Positions 12,174 through 24,591 of a stretch of DNA of 25,972 bases are shown piece after piece. Position numbers and translations under genes: made by a program. Below the pieces are notes generated by a model, which saw nothing but the letters and a program-made list of their open reading frames with translations, was not told the origin of the DNA and did not search any database. The DNA is taken from positions 1 through 25,972 of IMG/VR virus record IMGVR_UViG_3300030330_002475, one strand, 5' to 3'. Position 1 is the stretch's first letter, and each line of letters starts with the position of its first letter. The DNA is from a virus (lineage: Duplodnaviria; Caudoviricetes).

Positions 12174-12234
12174 ATTTTTAACAGTAAAAGAGTATAATGC
12201 TTTTGTCATGTTAGGATATGAGGAGAATCTCTAA
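12163..12234 (+). CDS. 23-aa micropeptide
   Basis: MQTKFLTVKEYNAFVMLGYEENL. GGGTGG SD; TAATG coupling to the next gene. Confidence 0.45.
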   Translation: MQTKFLTVKEYNAFVMLGYEENL

Positions 12235-12878
12235 TGGCCCGTAAAAATTGGACAGATAAAGAGACTAAGATATTGAGAGAGTTATTTCACAATAATATAA
12301 AAATGGAGACAATCATGAAAATACTAGGTAGAAGTAAAGCCTCAATAAATGCGAGATGTAGAAAGTTAAAAATCAAAAGAAATAAAGTAGTAGATAGTAA
12401 ATTGCCTTTTACAGATAAAACAAATAGAAAGCATTTTGCTAATCAAAGCAATTTAGTAATAGGTGGAATAAGTGAATGGTCAGTATTCATTAGTTTAGAG
12501 CAAAGAGGCTGGGGCGTCTTTAAACCCATTATAGAAGGTAATAGAACCGATTGTATCATAAAACATTATGAGACAGGTAAAACCTATAAGATACAAATCA
12601 AAACAGGTACATACTCACAAAGATATGATTGCTTTCACACTCAACTAAAAACTAGCGATGCATGGAAAGCAGAAAAATATAATAAAGAAGATTTACACTT
12701 TTTTATTGTTAGGCTTGATAAAATGAATGTGCATTATATTATACCTTTTGAAGATTCGTTAAGAATGCCTACAAGGCCAACACTAACACCACATAGAAGA
12801 AAACAAGTTAAGAGGTCAAGATATAATCATTTAGATACGGAACAATACAAAGATAAATGGGAGTTGATTAAAGCTTAA
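12234..12878 (+). CDS. HTH (Myb/GcrA-like) plus PD-(D/E)XK endonuclease, homing-endonuclease-like
   Basis: N-terminal WTDKETKIL...LGRSKASINAR. Nuclease core GGISE...GWGVFKP...RTDCII...KIQIKT resembles I-Ssp6803I-type enzymes. Confidence 0.75.
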   Translation: MARKNWTDKETKILRELFHNNIKMETIMKILGRSKASINARCRKLKIKRNKVVDSKLPFTDKTNRKHFANQSNLVIGGISEWSVFISLEQRGWGVFKPIIEGNRTDCIIKHYETGKTYKIQIKTGTYSQRYDCFHTQLKTSDAWKAEKYNKEDLHFFIVRLDKMNVHYIIPFEDSLRMPTRPTLTPHRRKQVKRSRYNHLDTEQYKDKWELIKA

Positions 12879-13342: not shown

Positions 13343-13753
13343 ATGACAAACAAGTCAAGTGAAGCTACCAGGTACATGATACAGGTAGGAACGAATAGAT
13401 TTAGGCGAGATACATGGGAAGCCATGAAGGACATATGTGCAATAGAGGGTACACGATTGGCAGATGAGATATGGGCAGCTTTGGACATGCATGTGAAGAC
13501 TTATGCAATAAGCCAGAAGAATGCTTTGGTAGGTGATGGCAGGGTAATGATGGATAGGCCGATGGAGACAGCTCCAGAGGGTCACGGCAATATTTTTGAC
13601 AATGTTGTGGACAAGGTAGTTAAAGAGGCGCACGATGATGTGATAGAGGAGGTAGTGAATGAAGAAGAAGACACAGGACGTACCGACCACGGAAGAGTGG
13701 CTAGCAGCAATATGTTTGGAAGTTACAAACCATCTAAAGACAGAAAATGGTAA
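13343..13753 (+). CDS. Possible ribbon-helix-helix DNA-binding protein with acidic tail
   Basis: Strand-helix-helix pattern RYMIQV...DTWEAMKDICAIEGTRLADEIWAALDMHV. Confidence 0.5.
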   Translation: MTNKSSEATRYMIQVGTNRFRRDTWEAMKDICAIEGTRLADEIWAALDMHVKTYAISQKNALVGDGRVMMDRPMETAPEGHGNIFDNVVDKVVKEAHDDVIEEVVNEEEDTGRTDHGRVASSNMFGSYKPSKDRKW

Positions 13754-14250
13754 AGGAAGGTAAGAGTTATACAACAGAGGACAAGCAGGAGGCGATGGGT
13801 TTGTACTTACGCGGGTATGGCAACACAGACATAGCTAGAAAGATGAACAAGCGTTACAAGTATAACTTAACAGCTAAGACGATAAGTCGTTGGGCTGCTA
13901 AGGGTGGTTGGGATGAGTATCGCAATCAGGTTGAGATAGATTTGATAGAGCATACGAAGAAGACGGTTGTTGGAGATATGGCAAAAAACATGCATGAGTT
14001 AGAGGAGGCTCGTCAGACGTTTATGAGTAATTTGCGTGATGGCAGGGCAGAGATACGCGGGCATGAGTTTGTTAAGATGACAGAGGTTTTGGGTAAGTTA
14101 CAGGATTTTGAGCGTGACAAGGAGGAGATGATAGGTCGGATAAATGGTTGCATACAGGGTGCATTGAAGGATGTGGACATGGACAAGCGGTTGAGTCAGA
14201 AGTTTTTGCGAGCTTACATTGCTAGGTTGCGAGGAGATAATGATGAGTAA
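13747..14250 (+). CDS. terS: Terminase small subunit
   Basis: N-terminal HTH YTTEDKQEAMGLYLRG...DIARK...TISRWAAKGGW followed by helical oligomerisation segments. Upstream of TerL in the same operon. Confidence 0.65.
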   Translation: MVKEGKSYTTEDKQEAMGLYLRGYGNTDIARKMNKRYKYNLTAKTISRWAAKGGWDEYRNQVEIDLIEHTKKTVVGDMAKNMHELEEARQTFMSNLRDGRAEIRGHEFVKMTEVLGKLQDFERDKEEMIGRINGCIQGALKDVDMDKRLSQKFLRAYIARLRGDNDE

Positions 14251-16500: not shown

Positions 16501-16616
16501 TTAAGGATGGTAAGGTCATTGATGAGACAGAGGATTTACATTATATGCATGAGTTGCTTGTAATTAATGACAAAGATGTTAAAGAGATAGTTGTAACTGT
16601 GGCAAAACACAAGTGA
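16479..16616 (+). CDS. 45-aa hypothetical protein (not in ORF track)
   Basis: GTG start, MVTIIRLIKDGKVIDETEDLHY... TGATG coupling to TerL. Confidence 0.55.
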   Translation: MVTIIRLIKDGKVIDETEDLHYMHELLVINDKDVKEIVVTVAKHK

Positions 16617-18082
16617 TGGATAATAGCAAATACATTTCGCAGGCAATCGCAGGTGCGTTGGAGATAATGAATGACCAGCCATTGACATTGAATGAGTTTA
16701 TAGATGAGGTGATGCGAGATTATATGGAGCAGGAGCCTGGGACTTATGTTCCTTTAGGTGATATGCATGCTCAGTGGGAAGAAAATTTTAACAAAGGTGA
16801 GTTTGCGTCTATAATTTGTGCAAGGGGTCACTTGAAAACGACATGGGGTTTGTGTGTGTTGGCATATTATATGCATAAGCAGCCAAACTTCAGGGCTTTG
16901 TATATTTCTGCAACGTTAGAACAGGCATGGGACAAGCTTGAACAGTTTGAGGAACTTTGTAAACGGTCATGGCGTCTTAGCAACTATCTTGAAAAGGGTG
17001 ACGACAGGAAGGTTACGATACGAAAGGGCGCAAAGCGGTTTAACAATGGTAGTCGCGTACATGGTGCAAGTATAGGAAAGGCACTTGAGGGTCCTCACGT
17101 TCACATGATTATTCTGGACGACGTTTTGCAGGAGTTTCCAAATCTTACTGATGAGAAGGTTATTCATTATGTACAGAGAGTTGTGATGCCGATGCGTCTT
17201 CCAGAGTCTAAAATGTTATTGGTAGGTACTCAAAAACGGGTAGGTGACATAACGGACTGGGTATCTGAGAGTTCAGAGTGGAATGTGGTTAGACATCCTG
17301 CACTTTTGGAGGACGGAAGTCCTAGATGGCCTGAATATTGGAATCAAGAGCGGTTGGACAAAGAAAAGGAGACAATGGGAAGTCGGGCTTTTGAGTCTGA
17401 GTATATGTTAAATCCGTTGGACCCAGAGTCTGCGGTTATACCGTATGAGGTATTACAGCGTTGTTTGGATGAAAAGTTGGACATGGGTCTTCCAGAGTAC
17501 GATGAAGATATAAGCGTCGTTATGGGTGTTGACTTGGCTGTGGGTATGAACAGTCAAAATGATGAGACAAGCTACGTTCTTGTGGCTTATAATAAACGTA
17601 CGGAGCAACGTAGGCTTTTGTATAGTTGGACAGGCAAGGTAATGGCGCAGGGTTCGGGTTGGTTAGAGACTCAGGTGTTAAAGATAAGAGAACTTGCGAA
17701 ACGTTTTAATCCAGATACGATAATGATAGAATCGAATGGGTATCAGAGGTTGGTTGTCCACAGTGCGTCGGATTTGGCGGGCTTACCAGTCGAAGGGCAC
17801 AACACGGGCAGAGAAAAGCACAGCCATGACGTGGGCATACCTGGGTTGGCCTTGGAGTTTGAGAAGGAGAGATACCAGATTCCGTGGCAAAAAGAAATAA
17901 GGGAAGCAAGTAGGCCAGGTCCTAGAAAATTAACGGATGGTTTGAGTCGTTTGGTTTACGGTAAAAACGGTAGGTTAGAGGGTCACACTCCAGATGCGGT
18001 GATGGCTTTGTGGATGTGTGAGTTAGCAATCAAAGGTATGAACAAAAAGGGTCTTGCTTTTGTTGGTTGGGATTACATATAG
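16616..18082 (+). CDS. terL: Terminase large subunit
   Basis: Walker A ARGHLKTT, Walker B MIILDD, coupling motif VGT, RNase H nuclease GVDLA / IESNGYQ / HTPDAVMAL. Confidence 0.95.
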   Translation: MDNSKYISQAIAGALEIMNDQPLTLNEFIDEVMRDYMEQEPGTYVPLGDMHAQWEENFNKGEFASIICARGHLKTTWGLCVLAYYMHKQPNFRALYISATLEQAWDKLEQFEELCKRSWRLSNYLEKGDDRKVTIRKGAKRFNNGSRVHGASIGKALEGPHVHMIILDDVLQEFPNLTDEKVIHYVQRVVMPMRLPESKMLLVGTQKRVGDITDWVSESSEWNVVRHPALLEDGSPRWPEYWNQERLDKEKETMGSRAFESEYMLNPLDPESAVIPYEVLQRCLDEKLDMGLPEYDEDISVVMGVDLAVGMNSQNDETSYVLVAYNKRTEQRRLLYSWTGKVMAQGSGWLETQVLKIRELAKRFNPDTIMIESNGYQRLVVHSASDLAGLPVEGHNTGREKHSHDVGIPGLALEFEKERYQIPWQKEIREASRPGPRKLTDGLSRLVYGKNGRLEGHTPDAVMALWMCELAIKGMNKKGLAFVGWDYI

Positions 18083-18126: not shown

Positions 18127-18276
18127 ATGAAAAAGCGAACACGGTTGGAAATTTACGGAATAAGTAACGATACTAAAGAAAGTTTGAAAGAGATTGCTAA
18201 GGCAGAGAATGTTCCGACGGGTGTTTTGGTAGAACCTGTGCTTAGAAAGTACGTCAAGGAGTACAATGGCAGATAA
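18127..18276 (+). CDS. Ribbon-helix-helix DNA-binding protein
   Basis: RLEIYGISNDTKESLKEIAKAENVPTGVLVEPVLRKYV. Start reassigned to ATG 18127. Confidence 0.7.
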   Translation: MKKRTRLEIYGISNDTKESLKEIAKAENVPTGVLVEPVLRKYVKEYNGR

Positions 18277-18658
18277 GAGAACTAGGTATAAGATTCCTAA
18301 AGGTGTTAAGAAAGAAGCGATGGATGGTCGTGATTTACGTCGTATGCATGGGTATGGCGGCGGTAAGGTGACAAAGATGGTAAATCGTAAGTTACGTATG
18401 CAGAAAGATATAGGTTATGATACAGCAGTAAAGATAGATACATATTACAGAAGACATGAGAAGGTAGACCCGCCCGCTAAGGGTTTTGGTGACAGACGTA
18501 ATCCGAGTAAGGGTTATGTGATGTGGAAGCAGATGGGTGGTGATGCAGGTCACAGGTGGAGTAAGTCATTGAAGAAGAGGTTAGACTTGCTTCAGAAAAC
18601 AGAAAGGCTTAATAACATAATGAAGACATTGGAGGATATACATGGCATGGTACGATAG
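18266..18658 (+). CDS. Basic head-associated protein (RHE...PSxG...W..GGDAG..W family)
   Basis: I recognise this motif set from phage head modules, where it is often fused to prohead protease or morphogenesis proteins. Function unknown. Confidence 0.65.
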   Translation: MADKRTRYKIPKGVKKEAMDGRDLRRMHGYGGGKVTKMVNRKLRMQKDIGYDTAVKIDTYYRRHEKVDPPAKGFGDRRNPSKGYVMWKQMGGDAGHRWSKSLKKRLDLLQKTERLNNIMKTLEDIHGMVR

Positions 18659-20042
18659 GATACTTGGACGCAAACCGATTAGAAAAATATCTGCGTTAGA
18701 GGAGATGATAGCAAATGATACAAATCAATTAGTAAAAGATGCAAGGACTCCAGTGTATTCTGCTATGGGAACAAATGCGCAATATCAAGAGTCGATATTA
18801 CCTCCGATAGACCAGAGGTACCTAGAACAGTTAGCAGACCGTTATTCGCATTTAAGGACGGTTATTTCGCGTATTGCTTCACAATCAGTAGCAAAGGGCT
18901 GGGAGTATCATGCAATAGGCGACACTGGCGATAAAGAAGAGAGAAAAATATTAGAGACATTACTTAGAGACCCGACAAGAGGAGATGCAGACATATCAGG
19001 TATGGAATTGTTTAAGGCAATGATAAGACAGTTAGAAATATTTGATGATGTGTGGGTTAGTATAGTTTATGACCGTGTAGAGGGTGGCGAGATGAAAGTA
19101 GTCAAACAGCTTTGGGTAGAAGATGCAAAGCACATGAGATTTCACGTAGATGAGTTTGGCAGGTTTAAGGATGACGTTTATTTTGATGTAATAACTAGAC
19201 AGTTTGTAGAGCAAGATGCAAAGACAGAAGGTGGTATTCCTGCTGCAAAGATGGCATATTTTTATGACCAAGGTGGAGATAGTGACAAAATACCTTTTGC
19301 AAGAGATGAGATTATACATTTTAACAAATACAGTGCGACAGCAAGGCTATATGGTCAGTCGCCGATTATAGGTCTTTCTAAAAAAATAGAAACTGCGCTC
19401 GCCATTGAGAACTTCCAAAATAAAATCTATAAACTAGAGAGACCACCTAAGGGTTTCCTTGATATTCCTGGTCATGATGAGGAATCATTAAATAGATTAG
19501 GAGAATACATTGCAGAAGAGACACGACGCAATCCTAACTTTGTACCAATTATAAGCAGTAGGGGTGAGGGTACAGGTAGCGGTCAGGCTAAGTTTGTGCC
19601 AGTTATGCCTAACATGGATGAGTTGATGGCACTGCCATATATGGAGCGTATTAACAACGACATAAACGCAGCGTATGGCGTTATGCCAATCATAACAGGA
19701 AGCACGGCAGGCGTAGGTGGATTGAATGCAGAAGGAGAACAGGTTAGTATATTTGACAGAACTATATTAGAAACGCAGAAATGTATTGAGATGGGTTTTT
19801 TTAAGCCGTTGTTGAAAATATTGGGCATAGAAACTTGGAAGATAAGATTTGCAGATATAAATGTAAAGAATGAGCAACAGCAACTTGCTAATATGTTACA
19901 GAAGGCAAATATAATCACAGTGCTTAACAAGGTAGGAATAGAGGCAACACTTGACAAAGACGGTAATCTTAAGTTACCAGACAATCCACAGATAAGTATG
20001 CCAGATGATGCTAAGCCAGAAGTAGGGGCGTTGAAACCATGA
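18642..20042 (+). CDS. Portal protein (HK97-like)
   Basis: 466 aa with FARDEIIHF...YGQSPI, PKGFL and INAAYGVMP motifs. Between TerL and protease. Confidence 0.92.
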   Translation: MAWYDRILGRKPIRKISALEEMIANDTNQLVKDARTPVYSAMGTNAQYQESILPPIDQRYLEQLADRYSHLRTVISRIASQSVAKGWEYHAIGDTGDKEERKILETLLRDPTRGDADISGMELFKAMIRQLEIFDDVWVSIVYDRVEGGEMKVVKQLWVEDAKHMRFHVDEFGRFKDDVYFDVITRQFVEQDAKTEGGIPAAKMAYFYDQGGDSDKIPFARDEIIHFNKYSATARLYGQSPIIGLSKKIETALAIENFQNKIYKLERPPKGFLDIPGHDEESLNRLGEYIAEETRRNPNFVPIISSRGEGTGSGQAKFVPVMPNMDELMALPYMERINNDINAAYGVMPIITGSTAGVGGLNAEGEQVSIFDRTILETQKCIEMGFFKPLLKILGIETWKIRFADINVKNEQQQLANMLQKANIITVLNKVGIEATLDKDGNLKLPDNPQISMPDDAKPEVGALKP

Positions 20043-20275: not shown

Positions 20276-20757
20276 TGGCTATTGAATGGGATACTGAAGG
20301 TTTTTATCGTACAATAAATTTTTTTAAAAAACGAGAAACTTGGCAAGAAATATTAGCTGTAGCTGCGAGTAACGTTGAAGATACTATTGCAAGCGATGCA
20401 AAGAATATATTGTATAGTCAAGTCAACAAAGTTACAGGTTCTGTAGGTAATAGTATTGAAACTACAGTAGATATATCTGATGATGATGTTACACTGTCAG
20501 TGGGTAGTAATCATCCTGCAGCAAATATGATAGAATATGGAGGTCTTGTTCCTGCTGAACCTTTTGACCCTAAATCTGCATTACCTAATATCGATGATTA
20601 TGCAGATGATGTTTTTGCATATTCTAATTATATAAAAAAGAAACAACCATTTAAACAAGAACGTCCATTTATTCGTCCAGCATTACTAAATGCTACTGGC
20701 AAAATAAACGGTGAAATAATTAGAGTAGCTAATAAGTTTAAAAAAGAATACGAGTAG
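20275..20757 (+). CDS. HK97 gp10-like neck/morphogenesis protein
   Basis: VTGSVGNSI...VGSNHPAANMIEYG...RPFIRPAL signature. Confidence 0.7.
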   Translation: MAIEWDTEGFYRTINFFKKRETWQEILAVAASNVEDTIASDAKNILYSQVNKVTGSVGNSIETTVDISDDDVTLSVGSNHPAANMIEYGGLVPAEPFDPKSALPNIDDYADDVFAYSNYIKKKQPFKQERPFIRPALLNATGKINGEIIRVANKFKKEYE

Positions 20758-20786
20758 TTTCCGGAAAGTTATACTTACTTATATAC
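20753..20786 (+). promoter_or_regulatory. Late promoter copy 1: TTTCCGGAAA palindrome, N7, TTACTTATATAC
   Basis: Same architecture at 22853-22886. TATA 21-27 nt before GTG 20806. Confidence 0.8.
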
Positions 20787-20805: not shown

Positions 20806-22857
20806 GTGGCAGACGCTAATAATACTAAGTGGAAAGTCTATCGACCAGACTGGTACAATGAAAGAGTTTTAGAAACGTTTATTAGCTCGCCTATCGTCGA
20901 TAAACAGAACGATAAAATTAAAACAGAGACAATTAAAGAAGCCATGGATTTCTATATGAAATATGGTGTATATTCATACAAGCATGAGGAGATGCCAGTA
21001 GGCTTACCTCTTGCATATAAGGTAAAAGACGGTAAAGTCAAAATACGTGTAGGCATACACAACAGGCTTCCTATGCATGATAGAGTATGGGAAGAAATGC
21101 AGATATACGGTGACAAGGGCGGTTCATCTATTAGGGGTGAAGCTGAGAAGCAAGAGAAGGTTTGCGAAGGAGACGTCTGCCACAACAACATCTCCGAGTT
21201 ATCTCTTTGGTCCGTGTCATGGGTTGGTAACAAGCCTGCTAATCCAGAGGCTACTGTAACCGCAGTAGCAGCAGCAAAAGCAGAAGAACCTGTAAAGGTG
21301 ACAAAGCAAGTAACACTAGATGAAATAGAAGGCATGGTAGAGAAGATAATAGAACGCAAGAATGGCGAGTATTGTCTATATGCTAAGAAAGATAGAAAGT
21401 TACTTGGATGTCATAAAACTAGAGCAGGCGCAGTAAATCAAGAACGCGCAATACAAGCTAGAAGATTCAGTAAAATGAATCAAGATTTAGATGAGATATT
21501 GGCTGTATTGAAAAAGAAACCATGTTGGGACGGTTATGAAATGGTAGGCTTCAAATATGAAGGCGGTAAAAAAAAGCCTAATTGCGTTCCACAAAAAAAA
21601 GCTGATGACCCAAGCACTCCAGCAAAACCAAGTGAGAGAAGGAGAGGCAGTACTAGAAATCCAAAAGGTACAGCTAGTGGAGAGCGTGGTGGAATCAAAT
21701 TAAGTGAGGCAAATATTAAAACATTAGAAGGTTATCGAGACGAACACAACAAGAAAGTTGGAAACGCTAAAGGGAAAAAGGCTAACCTGGGAGCATTGAA
21801 AGCAGTGTTTCGCAGGGGTGCTGGTGCATTTTCGACCAGTCATCGTCCTAGTGTACGTAGCCGAGACCAGTGGGCGTTAGGTCGTGTCAAGGCATTCTTA
21901 AAACTACTAAGCTCAGGTAGGCCTTCCAATCCTAAGTACACCACGGATTACGATTTATTGCCCGCAGGTCATCCCAAATCTACTAAAAAAGAAATGAAGA
22001 CAGTAAAAGTTAAGCCACCAAAAGGGCATCACTGGATGGCATACAAAGATGGTCCAGTACTTATGGTAGGTGACTATGCACCACACGAAGGCGCAGTAGA
22101 AGCATTTGAGTTTGAGGTTATTGAAGAACATGACGACTCTAGGCTTGCTAAAGCTGAGTATCAAGGTAAAAAAGTAGAATTGAACAAACCACGAAGACTG
22201 TCTGGAGAGAACAAGAAGTTTGGTGTATATGTAAAGAATGACAAAGGTAATATTGTACAGGTCAAGTTTGGCGACCCTAACTTAGATATAAAACGTGATG
22301 ACCCAGAAAGGCGTAGAAACTTTAGAGCCAGACACAACTGTGACAATCCAGGCCCAAAATATAAGGCAAGATATTGGTCTTGTAGAATGTGGAGTGCAAA
22401 GAATGTGTCAGATATATTAGCGAAAAGCAATGAACATTTAGATGATATAATAGATTTAATAAAAGCACCCAAAAAAAAACCTAAAAATAGGAAAAGAACA
22501 AGAGGCGGTAAAAATCCTTCTAAAACACAATGGAATAACTGTTTACAAAATGCAAGAAATTTAAAAACATATTATGGTGCACCAATGGCTGCAGACCCTA
22601 AAAGATTTTGCGGAGCACTGTGGTATGACTACGGTAAGTTTGGACATCAAGACGCAGGTGCAGACAAAGAGCCAGACCCTCCATACAAACACGCTCCAGG
22701 CATGGGTGGTAAAGACCCAGGCAAAATCCGAAATAGGAGTGGATTAAAGTTTAGACGCGCGATGTTTGAACGCTCAGGATATTGGCGTAGAGCAAGGGGT
22801 AGAATGTTAACTCCTAAAAACATTGCAAGGCTAATGAGTGGTAAAGGAAACAAGTAG
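20806..22857 (+). CDS. Prohead (maturation) protease with long multi-module C-terminal extension
   Basis: HK97-type protease in aa 20-155 (VDKQND, YKHEEMPVG, GSSIRG, SVSWVGNKPANPEA), then about 520 aa of basic modules. Confidence 0.88.
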   Translation: MADANNTKWKVYRPDWYNERVLETFISSPIVDKQNDKIKTETIKEAMDFYMKYGVYSYKHEEMPVGLPLAYKVKDGKVKIRVGIHNRLPMHDRVWEEMQIYGDKGGSSIRGEAEKQEKVCEGDVCHNNISELSLWSVSWVGNKPANPEATVTAVAAAKAEEPVKVTKQVTLDEIEGMVEKIIERKNGEYCLYAKKDRKLLGCHKTRAGAVNQERAIQARRFSKMNQDLDEILAVLKKKPCWDGYEMVGFKYEGGKKKPNCVPQKKADDPSTPAKPSERRRGSTRNPKGTASGERGGIKLSEANIKTLEGYRDEHNKKVGNAKGKKANLGALKAVFRRGAGAFSTSHRPSVRSRDQWALGRVKAFLKLLSSGRPSNPKYTTDYDLLPAGHPKSTKKEMKTVKVKPPKGHHWMAYKDGPVLMVGDYAPHEGAVEAFEFEVIEEHDDSRLAKAEYQGKKVELNKPRRLSGENKKFGVYVKNDKGNIVQVKFGDPNLDIKRDDPERRRNFRARHNCDNPGPKYKARYWSCRMWSAKNVSDILAKSNEHLDDIIDLIKAPKKKPKNRKRTRGGKNPSKTQWNNCLQNARNLKTYYGAPMAADPKRFCGALWYDYGKFGHQDAGADKEPDPPYKHAPGMGGKDPGKIRNRSGLKFRRAMFERSGYWRRARGRMLTPKNIARLMSGKGNK

Positions 22858-22886
22858 TTTCCGGAAATATTGAGTTACTTATATAC
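22853..22886 (+). promoter_or_regulatory. Late promoter copy 2 driving scaffold-MCP
   Basis: AGTAGTTTCCGGAAA N7 TTACTTATATAC, 20 nt before ATG 22907. Confidence 0.8.
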
Positions 22887-22906: not shown

Positions 22907-23416
22907 ATGACAGATTGCAGTTGTGGTGGTAATCATACTGAAGCTATCGACGAAGAAGTCGTTGAAACAGAAGACGTGGAAATTGCCGCTGGATTAGATG
23001 AGCCAGTAGAAGTCGGCAAAGAAGAAGCAGTCCTAAAAGACATGGAAGAGACTCTAATGAAGCTTAAAGAAGTAATAAACTACTTAAGTGAAAAAGAAGA
23101 AGAAAAAATGGACGAGGAAAAGATGGACGAAGAGAAAATGTACGGCGAAGAAAAAGACGAAGAAGACGAAGAAGAAAAGGAAGATGAAGAGGAAGAAGAA
23201 AAAATGATGGAAGAAAAGAAGCCTAAGAAAAAGGACGACATCGATGACCTCTACAAAGCCGTCACAACATTAAAGAAACACGGTATTGGTGTATACACGG
23301 GACAAAAAGCAACCCCAGCACCTACCACTGAAGCTACTATTGAAGAAAAAACCATTGACTGGAATAATTTATCTAAGTCATGGGATGAACTAGAAGATAT
23401 GGTAGGAGGAAACTAA
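22907..23416 (+). CDS. Capsid scaffolding protein
   Basis: Very acidic, helical, EEKMD tandem repeats. Between protease and MCP. Confidence 0.75.
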   Translation: MTDCSCGGNHTEAIDEEVVETEDVEIAAGLDEPVEVGKEEAVLKDMEETLMKLKEVINYLSEKEEEKMDEEKMDEEKMYGEEKDEEDEEEKEDEEEEEKMMEEKKPKKKDDIDDLYKAVTTLKKHGIGVYTGQKATPAPTTEATIEEKTIDWNNLSKSWDELEDMVGGN

Positions 23417-23418
23417 GT

Positions 23419-24591
23419 ATGGCAGGAATAAGTTTTGAAGAATATGTAAACGCATATTATGGTGGTACTCTAGGAATCTCTAAGAGATATGGTATCGCAA
23501 AAGACGACACAGTGACCAGCACAGACCCTGCTGGAGCATTCAACACTATGTTCGGAGCAAAAGTATTCAATCAGTTGAATACCAAGTCAGAAGTTTTTAA
23601 ACTTTTGAAGAAAGAAGCATGGACACAATCAGGATTCAGAATCATGACTGGAAGGCACAGCACAACTGCTGGTGTATCCGAAGGTGGAGATTTCCCAGCT
23701 ACTGAAAAACCAGACATTGAAGAATTGACTCTTACACTAAAAGAAATAGTTACACCATGGGAAATGACTTCTAAAGCAGAAATGTTGTCAGAAGCAGACG
23801 ATGGATTGGGCAACTTACTAGCATTTATGCGCAGAGAACAAGGAGAAGCACACTCTTTTGCTATTGACCAGATGTTGTTAAAAACATATGAAGCAGATGG
23901 TGACGGCTCAGCAAGTCCTTCTGGTGCAGGAACTGCTGGAGTTAACATGGAATCTTTAGACCGTGTTACAGCATCTCATACATACTGTGGTAACTCAAAC
24001 TCCGCTGGTGGAGACAATGCAGCATACGGTAAATTATACGACAAAAACGCAGGAGATTCTGGATTTGCAGAGTGGACTGCTGGAAAGACTGACTTTAACT
24101 CTACAGACGGAAACAACCGTGACTTAGAATTAAATATGTTAGATGATATGATTTCAGCGTTGTTAGAAAAAGGTGTTAACTACAACAGTTTAATTATGTT
24201 GATGGGATATGATACATATCAACAACTAAAAGGTAAAATGCAACAAACAAATGCAGCTTACAGCTTTGGCCTAAATGCAGGTGGAGCAGGCAGTCAGAAC
24301 GGAGTTACTGGAGAAGCTGGTTTGAACTTTGATTCACGAGTTGGAGCATACGATGGAATACCAATTTTCCTATCACAACACGTACCAAAAGACAGTGGAG
24401 GCGCAGGAAGAATTTACTTCTTGGATATGGACCACTTGGCAGTTCGTGTAGCAGCACCAACAACCTATGTTGACAACACTAACTTGGCTATTAGACAAAA
24501 ACTAAGCAGAGAATATGCATTCATAACTGCTGGTGAATTAGTCTGTTACAGAAGAAACACTCAAGGCAGTATCAGAGACTTGAACCTTTAG
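23419..24591 (+). CDS. Major capsid protein, HK97 fold, Magrovirus/halovirus-like
   Basis: YYG...K-D...G.KV..QLN...F..L.K..W..SG.R..T N-terminal signature; VSEGG; GAYDGIPIF; QGSIRDL end; SD GGAGG. Confidence 0.92.
   Translation: MAGISFEEYVNAYYGGTLGISKRYGIAKDDTVTSTDPAGAFNTMFGAKVFNQLNTKSEVFKLLKKEAWTQSGFRIMTGRHSTTAGVSEGGDFPATEKPDIEELTLTLKEIVTPWEMTSKAEMLSEADDGLGNLLAFMRREQGEAHSFAIDQMLLKTYEADGDGSASPSGAGTAGVNMESLDRVTASHTYCGNSNSAGGDNAAYGKLYDKNAGDSGFAEWTAGKTDFNSTDGNNRDLELNMLDDMISALLEKGVNYNSLIMLMGYDTYQQLKGKMQQTNAAYSFGLNAGGAGSQNGVTGEAGLNFDSRVGAYDGIPIFLSQHVPKDSGGAGRIYFLDMDHLAVRVAAPTTYVDNTNLAIRQKLSREYAFITAGELVCYRRNTQGSIRDLNL

Follow-up and report, generated by a model that had tools for sequence, protein, structure and literature searches.

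A prohead protease-like polyprotein with mobile modules at lysine joints, plausibly a source of internal head proteins

In a 25,972-base virus record (IMG/VR IMGVR_UViG_3300030330_002475, positions 1 to 25,972; Duplodnaviria, Caudoviricetes; estimated 71% complete; the window, in what follows, is this whole stretch) a prohead protease-like domain, encoded between the genes for portal and major capsid protein, like in the S78/XkdF family, is followed by a tail of 525 residues. What may such a tail be for? An initial annotation had divided it into at least six discrete modules, and regarded these as mobile basic cargo for DNA binding or host takeover, released by the protease after Lys and possibly injected. 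The six modules, here called A to F and 28 to 130 residues in size, are all found where they had been placed. The start assigned to the feature, 21280, corresponds instead to residue 159, just after AAAK158, and the open reading frame (ORF) begins at 20806. Judging from the comparisons reported below, the polyprotein is probably packaged into the prohead and cut after Lys. That the modules so released would remain as internal head proteins binding the packed DNA is the reading we favour, with a rough probability of 0.62. The ORF is organized as follows.

20806..22857, + strand: protease-cargo polyprotein ORF, GTG start, 683 amino acids (aa), one open frame
20806..21279, + strand: prohead protease domain, aa 1-158, S78/XkdF-like, with His60 and Ser108, ending at Lys158
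21280..21345, + strand: acidic linker 1, aa 159-180, amphipathic helix ending at Lys180
21346..21474, + strand: module A, aa 181-223, basic, Cys pair, predicted three strands and a helix (predicted local distance difference test, pLDDT, 60-67)
21475..21516, + strand: acidic linker 2, aa 224-237
21517..21600, + strand: module B, aa 238-265, Cys-closed hairpin, optional
21601..21990, + strand: module C, aa 266-395, basic, three-helix core, DUF5824-like (below the Pfam cut-off), optional
21991..22152, + strand: module D, aa 396-449, acidic, optional
22153..22425, + strand: module E, aa 450-540, basic, His/Cys/Cys motif, DUF5754/Tlr6F-like (below the cut-off)
22426..22464, + strand: acidic linker 3, aa 541-553, ending at Lys553, which is kept in 90/92
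22465..22857, + strand: module F, aa 554-683, very basic, Cys-paired helical core; other subtypes are swapped in among relatives

Conservation of the joint Lys was rejected as proof of cutting, many Lys inside the modules being equally conserved (K332 and K298, 47/47 each). Since conservation alone proves nothing, the weight is carried by the comparison of joints at which neighbours are swapped. Within the clade, Lys precedes module E in 34/34 unique contexts (54 sequences), 33 of which have Ile, Leu or Val two residues before. This holds whether B, D or the A linker is the upstream neighbour, and a fourth neighbour, C, is found in L186 and L188. Given that Lys makes up 13.8% of the tails, the chance of finding it at three independent joints is ~0.003, to be read knowing that Lys could travel with the module. 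In a set of 72 loci classed by neighbouring genes, the residue before E is Lys in 9/9 loci of this clade, and Val-x-Ala precedes E in 5/5 of the L095 group, which are other viruses (L095 itself being the reference). Next to T4-like neighbours, Glu is at position -1 in 20 loci and at -2 in 10 (followed by Ala in 7, Asp in 2 and Lys in 1), 16 being unscored; seven unclassed loci include one Gly and six unscored contexts. That E mostly follows Glu beside T4-like genes, as stated in the initial annotation, is borne out by these loci. At 50% identity, module E falls into 4186 clusters. In a set of 149 representatives, Glu is at -1 in 44 and at -2 in 36, Ala is found in 25 and other residues in 6, and 37 are unscored; Lys at -1 occurs in 2/149, one being a protease of this clade and one belonging to the 36 with Glu at -2. 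Five stand-alone E genes (CRP-901, Aegir, HTVC111P, HTVC026P and the spindle-shaped virus NBC1) start with Met-Ala-x-Tyr-x-Gly exactly at K449|A450, Met taking the place of K449; two other stand-alone E genes have divergent starts, and one is 13 residues longer. Each virus lineage places its own type of residue before E and, as far as these contexts tell, the Lys belongs to the virus lineage and not to the module, because the residue differs by lineage, being Lys, Glu, Ala or Met. Joints of module B agree, with a Glu site in 12/16 contexts of Glu-class proteins and, scored by the same rule, Lys in 12/14 here. Arg was noticed by eye at such joints in CRP-823 and S-CBS1.

The same hydrophobic-x-Lys motif closes the leaders of other head proteins. 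Gly-Ile-x-Lys is kept in 60/60 unique capsid starts, x being represented by seven residues, and variable sequence and indels come directly after it; the predicted cut point aligns <=2 residues from the start of the 299-aa T5 capsid chain (a weak match, E 0.021). Portal starts end in hydrophobic-x-Lys (rows with the true start, among 40 of 68 listed). In the scaffold-like protein and in stand-alone copies of a seventh module, G, hydrophobic-x-Lys lies ahead of the terminal amphipathic helix. HVTV-1 is Lys-poor, and yet its homologous protease domain and its capsid leader have their ends at the same Lys; of the 102 residues of that leader, the motif takes up four sites (shuffle P 0.011), with no enrichment in the mature part (P 0.34). 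Within the tail, the five Lys contexts originally quoted are all present, at K158, K180, K223, K449 and K540; the junctions of B, C and D are Lys-Lys, not clean hydrophobic-x-Lys. We infer a P1 specificity for Lys. The T4 prohead protease obeys the rule Leu/Ile-x-Glu, and HK97 gp4 cuts after Lys103 of the HK97 capsid protein. An Ala-x-Glu rule is given for the SPN3US protease (PMC10052503). Comparing joints may offer a way to derive the specificity of prohead proteases from genomes.

The tail is not one invariant domain. Of 154 relatives, 80 loci were kept (73-99% identity), with 69 complete and 11 truncated ORFs. The complete ORFs, 349-764 aa long, fall into 9 architectures. Writing P for the protease, and counting loci that were not de-duplicated, with the subtypes of A and F merged, these are PAF (22), PABCDEF (13), PABEF (11), PAEF (8), PABDEF (6), PAGBCDEF (4), PAGCDEF (2), PAGBEF (2) and PABCDE (1). 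Module A is found in all 69. Three pairs with identical protease domains carry different tails; the tree of relatives, a quick version with 37/75 inner branches open, was used for these pairs only, and not to order events. Module order varies as well (D-C-G, E-C, C-E). Module G, in the window a stand-alone 130-aa gene, is fused in 12/50 loci covering the terminase end, portal and protease; none of these has a separate gene, which occurs in 37 of the other 38. The L200 clade has protease, C, D and scaffold in one ORF, and some further relatives carry short unrelated tails after the protease. As read from these ORFs, modules B, C, D, E and G have been gained and lost at the joints, and four of the six modules of the window are dispensable, in line with the mobility initially assumed. 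The 683-aa ORF is not an assembly chimera, since independent copies are found on other contigs (P0002-P0008, L001). In one fragment from a relative (P0162) a shortened module A runs into a SET-domain match (precomputed, PF00856), which might be either a chimera or new cargo.

Residues 1-158 are, by comparison, an S78/XkdF-like serine protease with predicted activity. His60 and Ser108 are invariant (12/12 sequences), and align with the His and Ser of Roseobacter phage CRP-6 gp55 (XkdF, 65 bits) and of a distant S78 protease, L309 (S78, 32.7 bits, cut-off 21). Lys158, at the end of the domain, is kept in 94/94 relatives. Membership rests on transitive profile alignments, with probabilities of 85.8 to gp55, a clear XkdF protein, and of 95.7 to L309, which passes Pfam S78, over 188 columns that include module A; the alignment to HVTV-1 gp119 has E 2.2e-5 among 8 proteins. 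A low-confidence model of the protease finds viral prohead proteases at E 2e-3 and 4e-2, and T4 gp21 (5jbl) at rank 4 with E 0.083. T4 gp21 as the closest protease is ruled out by sequence (profile match probability 0.3%).

The chemistry of the tail bears on what the modules may do. Net charges are +8 for A, +4 for B, +18 for C, +12 for E and +25 for F, and the cargo is thus basic as first described, except for D (-4). The tail has eight Cys, arranged as a single pair in each of A, B, E and F. Between the modules are three short linkers (159-180, 224-237 and 541-553), acidic and helical, whose helices resemble the C-terminal amphipathic helix of the scaffold. The full-length AlphaFold2 model is poor (mean pLDDT 43, predicted template modelling score, pTM, 0.24, from a 25-row low-diversity alignment), only A and the cores of C and F exceeding 60; module E modelled alone reaches pLDDT 88 and pTM 0.76. 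Fold searches found nothing significant in PDB with the full-length model, and no PDB match at E<=0.001 for E; the Cren7 and AP2 rows for E are weak and were not taken as evidence. Sequence searches against solved structures gave nothing significant, and domain profile searches of the tail no enzyme match. Module C matches DUF5824 with 23.3 bits (E 7.7e-5; gathering score 25; Atlas 0.94), a family accounting for 68-86% of its top three Atlas clusters. The window's copy of E matches DUF5754 with 13.7-14.1 bits, under the gathering score of 27.4; 11/36 homologues match at E<=0.1 (best 4.4e-5), and DUF5754 makes up 46% of the members of the Atlas cluster found (0.93). DUF5754 has been equated with Tlr6f (PMC12220804), of which conservation in many DNA viruses is described, whereas neither a structure nor a function is said to be known (PMC4642659).

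Modules B, C, D and E also occur apart from this protease, and the initial claim that modules exist independently holds for these four. Pelagibacter, Roseobacter, Flavobacterium and Methylophilales phages carry module E, as do spindle-shaped archaeal viruses. CRP-823 and DSL-LC01 have C. Module B is present in DSL-LC01, Melnitz and BLv36, in T4-like phage proteins and ahead of a halovirus protease. Roseophage CRP-901 has, upstream of its E gene, a stand-alone ORF that is D-like and unannotated. Module G occurs in S-CBS1, PaBG and others. Hosts of these viruses include archaea, alphaproteobacteria, cyanobacteria, Bacteroidota and actinobacteria, and the E-like family is also found in eukaryotic viruses; cultured carriers include CRP-6, HTVC008M, S-CBS1 (module G) and BLv36 (module B). 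In cultured phages, module F gave one chance match (E 9), and module A only matches with E>=0.6 among 25 of 148 listed. Modules A and F are thus not convincingly found, at the level of these searches, outside protease fusions. Both are also borne, after Lys joints, by the distant S78 protease L309 (L309:1-2055), where F is split by an intein-like insert (intein E 0.004, below the cut-off) with homing-endonuclease-like motifs. Such an insert is odd for a small cargo module, and suggests that F is conserved and needed. In a set of 24 loci, 21 resemble this clade, and 2 look like chance matches.

How could the system operate? The polyprotein would co-assemble into the prohead through its protease and the acidic amphipathic linker helices. 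The protease would then cut after Lys, as the covariation of the joints suggests, and so trim the leaders of capsid protein (K28) and portal (K32), the scaffold and itself (K158), and open the joints between modules. The acidic linkers would leave, and the basic modules stay with the genome, neutralizing or organizing it, as charge and distribution indicate; they may also follow the genome into the cell. DNA is favoured as ligand because the modules are basic and spread over unrelated hosts. The position of E at protease-type joints predicts an internal head protein with a defined mature N-terminus, and the arrangement would represent a natural single-gene route to load several proteins into a capsid.

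Several points weigh against these conclusions. Conserved hydrophobic-x-Lys sites exist also inside modules (K332, K414) in tails so rich in Lys. The enrichment of the motif in linkers is weak and was defined after the fact (7/24 vs 5/57, p 0.035), and usage of the motif over whole proteins does not separate lineages (in the Glu class, 4.46 Glu-type vs 3.94 Lys-type motifs per 1000 residues). No E start is recognizable in the unscored 37/149 representatives and 22 contexts of the 72-locus set, some Glu-then-Ala contexts can be read either way, and T4-like labels are sometimes based on a single neighbour match. Module D is acidic, unlike the other five, and none of the fold matches of the full-length and module E models points to DNA binding. 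The E-like Tlr6f gave only sub-threshold peptides in purified PgVV particles (bioRxiv 10.1101/2022.07.28.501842). Finally, residues 1-158 remain below all curated cut-offs (XkdF E 0.19, phrog_80 E 0.012-0.028, NCBIfam no match).

Loading and Lys cleavage could be as proposed, and the freed modules be effectors, ejected to act within the first minutes in the host, in anti-restriction or takeover, like T4 IPI or Alt. Gain and loss of modules is rapid among near-identical proteases, as is typical of conflict genes, and this fast turnover may keep such a role alive. The pieces are seemingly small enough for the tail tube, and in many T4-like loci E lies behind leaders of the type Met-Lys-Thr/Ser-Phe, the T4 leader consensus. 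There is precedent in T4 IPI, which is injected and inhibits GmrSD (PMC9958956). Yet, the same modules are present in viruses of archaea, of several bacterial phyla and, for the E-like family, of eukaryotes, a distribution that speaks against a target specific to one host and is better matched by a ligand independent of the host, such as DNA. Neither an enzyme nor a known effector fold emerged from the sequence and fold searches (PADLOC was not searched), and the host takeover first suggested is on these grounds unlikely. A still less probable alternative is that the tail is assembly hardware, an accessory inner core or a tether of portal and protease, to be digested at the Lys sites and lost from the head in the manner of T4 gp22/gp67/gp68 or of the 64-residue C-terminal propeptide shed by SPN3US gp245 (PMC10052503). 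Its linkers resemble the end of the scaffold, whose gene is separate but adjacent here, and fused to the protease in relatives; the dense Lys would permit full digestion. The modules, however, are compact, conserved, Cys-paired and fold alone, exist in other viruses as separate genes without a leader, and are basic where scaffolds here are acidic, four of the six being moreover dispensable. That the Lys joints are unprocessed recombination seams in A-rich DNA, the fusion working or idling as one piece, may appeal to A-rich joint codons and abundant Lys, but is very improbable, as the residue before E shifts by lineage (Lys, Glu, Ala, Met) and matches the ends of the capsid and portal leaders of the same virus, and the motif is enriched in the HVTV-1 capsid leader.

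The proposed internal head proteins have a close parallel in T4, where IPI-III and Alt are small non-essential proteins of the prohead core, trimmed by the prohead protease (PMC9958956). The boundaries of the modules similarly coincide, by sequence covariation, with the predicted site of the prohead protease, and in T4-like marine phages Glu sites precede module E itself. In T4, however, cargo is encoded by separate genes with an N-terminal targeting sequence, not as a C-terminal chain on the protease gene; here joints are Lys, head genes halovirus-like, and the protease profile lacks a gp21 match. The polyprotein would work like the T4 internal proteins, and is not a member of that group. S78 (HK97 gp4), S78_2 (XkdF) and HVTV-1 gp119 share His and Ser positions, domain length and gene position with the window protein, but do not have its 525-residue modular tail; gp119 has an acidic scaffold-like tail of its own, and none of these modules. 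Self-processing head polyproteins combining protease and scaffold are known in herpesvirus (UL26) and lambda (C/Nu3). Protease-scaffold and protease-capsid fusions (NCBIfam NF045541) are comparable, as the L200 clade illustrates, and S-CBS1 gp04 has module G ahead of a protease-capsid fusion, with Arg joints; the pieces released here would in contrast be optional mobile modules, not shell or scaffold. Polyvalent proteins are likewise mosaic, multi-domain and predicted to be packaged in virions, and for some of them processing by an assemblin-like peptidase that they contain is predicted (Iyer et al. 2017, PMC5512222), and the window polyprotein has a mosaic multi-domain architecture in a packaging context. 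Their peptidase is said in the same source to be always C-terminal, and enzymes make up most of their domains. The window polyprotein has its protease at the N-terminus, followed by orphan modules for which there is no enzyme match. Tlr6F/DUF5754 is weakly matched by E, and DUF5824 is matched by C, both below the Pfam cut-offs, but Tlr6F is treated as a small stand-alone protein of unknown function in the available parts of PMC12220804, PMC4642659 and bioRxiv 10.1101/2022.07.28.501842. A full-text search of a limited literature collection found no published description of this arrangement. Such a tail is not mentioned in the full text of PMC13108676, nor in the parts available of PMC11706807, PMC10713586, PMC12085832, PMC12810830 and bioRxiv 10.64898/2026.06.19.733378. 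The general principle is already known from T4 and giant phages, and the single-gene arrangement is a variant of it.

It is tempting, if rather doubtful, to see A-G as a shared and so far unrecognized kit of viral DNA-core proteins, distributed among tailed phages, archaeal tailed and spindle-shaped viruses and, via Tlr6F/DUF5754 and DUF5824, eukaryotic DNA viruses. The protease gene would be a plug-in socket, with joints recoded to suit the protease specificity of each lineage (Lys, Glu, Ala, Arg). If true, cargo and protease specificity could both be read from sequence, and Tlr6F would get a job in the capsid.

Other elements of the window relevant to the polyprotein gene are listed below.

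16613-18082: terminase, head operon
18266..18658, + strand: stand-alone gene of module G, 130 aa, with a C-terminal helix, linker-like, following Lys111; a sister clade has the module fused into the protease
18642..20042, + strand: portal protein, leader ending in hydrophobic-x-Lys32 (predicted cut)
20755..20786, + strand: promoter-like element ahead of the protease gene, containing an archaeal TATA-like box (sequence-based, putative promoter)
22855..22886, + strand: promoter-like element, second copy, ahead of the scaffold gene (putative promoter)
22907..23416, + strand: acidic scaffold-like protein, 169 aa, Glu-Glu-Lys repeats, C-terminal amphipathic helix after a Lys site
23419..24591, + strand: HK97-fold major capsid protein, 28-residue leader ending in Gly-Ile-x-Lys28 (predicted cut)

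Two small ORFs lie between the portal gene and the 683-aa ORF. The 32-base element with the TATA-like box occurs as near copies ahead of the protease and the scaffold genes. As the scaffold-like protein is fused to the protease ORF in the L200 clade, the scaffold gene may have split off along with a promoter copy. Among cultured phages, 8/8 matches of the capsid protein are Druskaviridae haloviruses (HVTV/HCTV records, 29-30%), and 8/10 matches of the portal are HVTV/HCTV halovirus records. A halovirus-like head module is the pattern reported for magroviruses (PMC5434244); because of this and of the TATA-like element, the host is plausibly archaeal, perhaps one of the Poseidoniales. The protease was not matched in prokaryote genomes (0/18 candidates). 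Magroviruses (Magrovirales) are characterized by a head module nearest to Druskaviridae and a 65-100 kb genome with a family B DNA polymerase (PolB). PolB is matched in 1/5 relatives, the 55-kb one, and not in the other four, which are 36-37 kb long and rated 98-100% complete; all five are linear records that may be fragments. Since PolB is missing in near-complete relatives, the window virus may not be a classical magrovirus. The four (G002-G005) possibly represent a group of marine archaeal viruses that are halovirus-like and have small genomes. The window also encodes a PD-(D/E)XK endonuclease and a terminase-small-subunit-like helix-turn-helix protein (12234-12878 and 13747-14250), upstream of the head operon.

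A few loci of other viruses deserve mention. In CRP-6 gp55 (L273:1935-2624), annotated as hypothetical, E is fused ahead of the XkdF protease, with Lys joints. In Roseobacter phage CRP-901 (L272:614-2886) small basic genes are clustered: the stand-alone E, an A-like ORF of 41 aa and, all unannotated, the D-like ORF and further basic ones. In Actinomycetia phage DSL-LC01 (L084, L287), head-region proteins contain B, C and G, and the joints repeat Thr-Ala-Ala/Ser/Gly, which points to an Ala-type site. Another virus group (L196:3140-, L199, L205, L208 and L212-L215) has a polyprotein of the order D-C-(unknown)-G; its joints are Lys, and the ORF showed no protease domain. T4-like proteins in L083:2094-3884, L101, L104, L105 and L278 begin with a nucleotidyltransferase-like region, and C-like, B and E modules come next, each behind Glu sites. 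HVTV-1 gp113-116 (L285:4230-13018) are large head-region proteins, one annotated as a zeta toxin, with scattered hydrophobic-x-Lys sites, and a short motif repeated in them is also found in the protease tails of two relatives (P0140, P0143).

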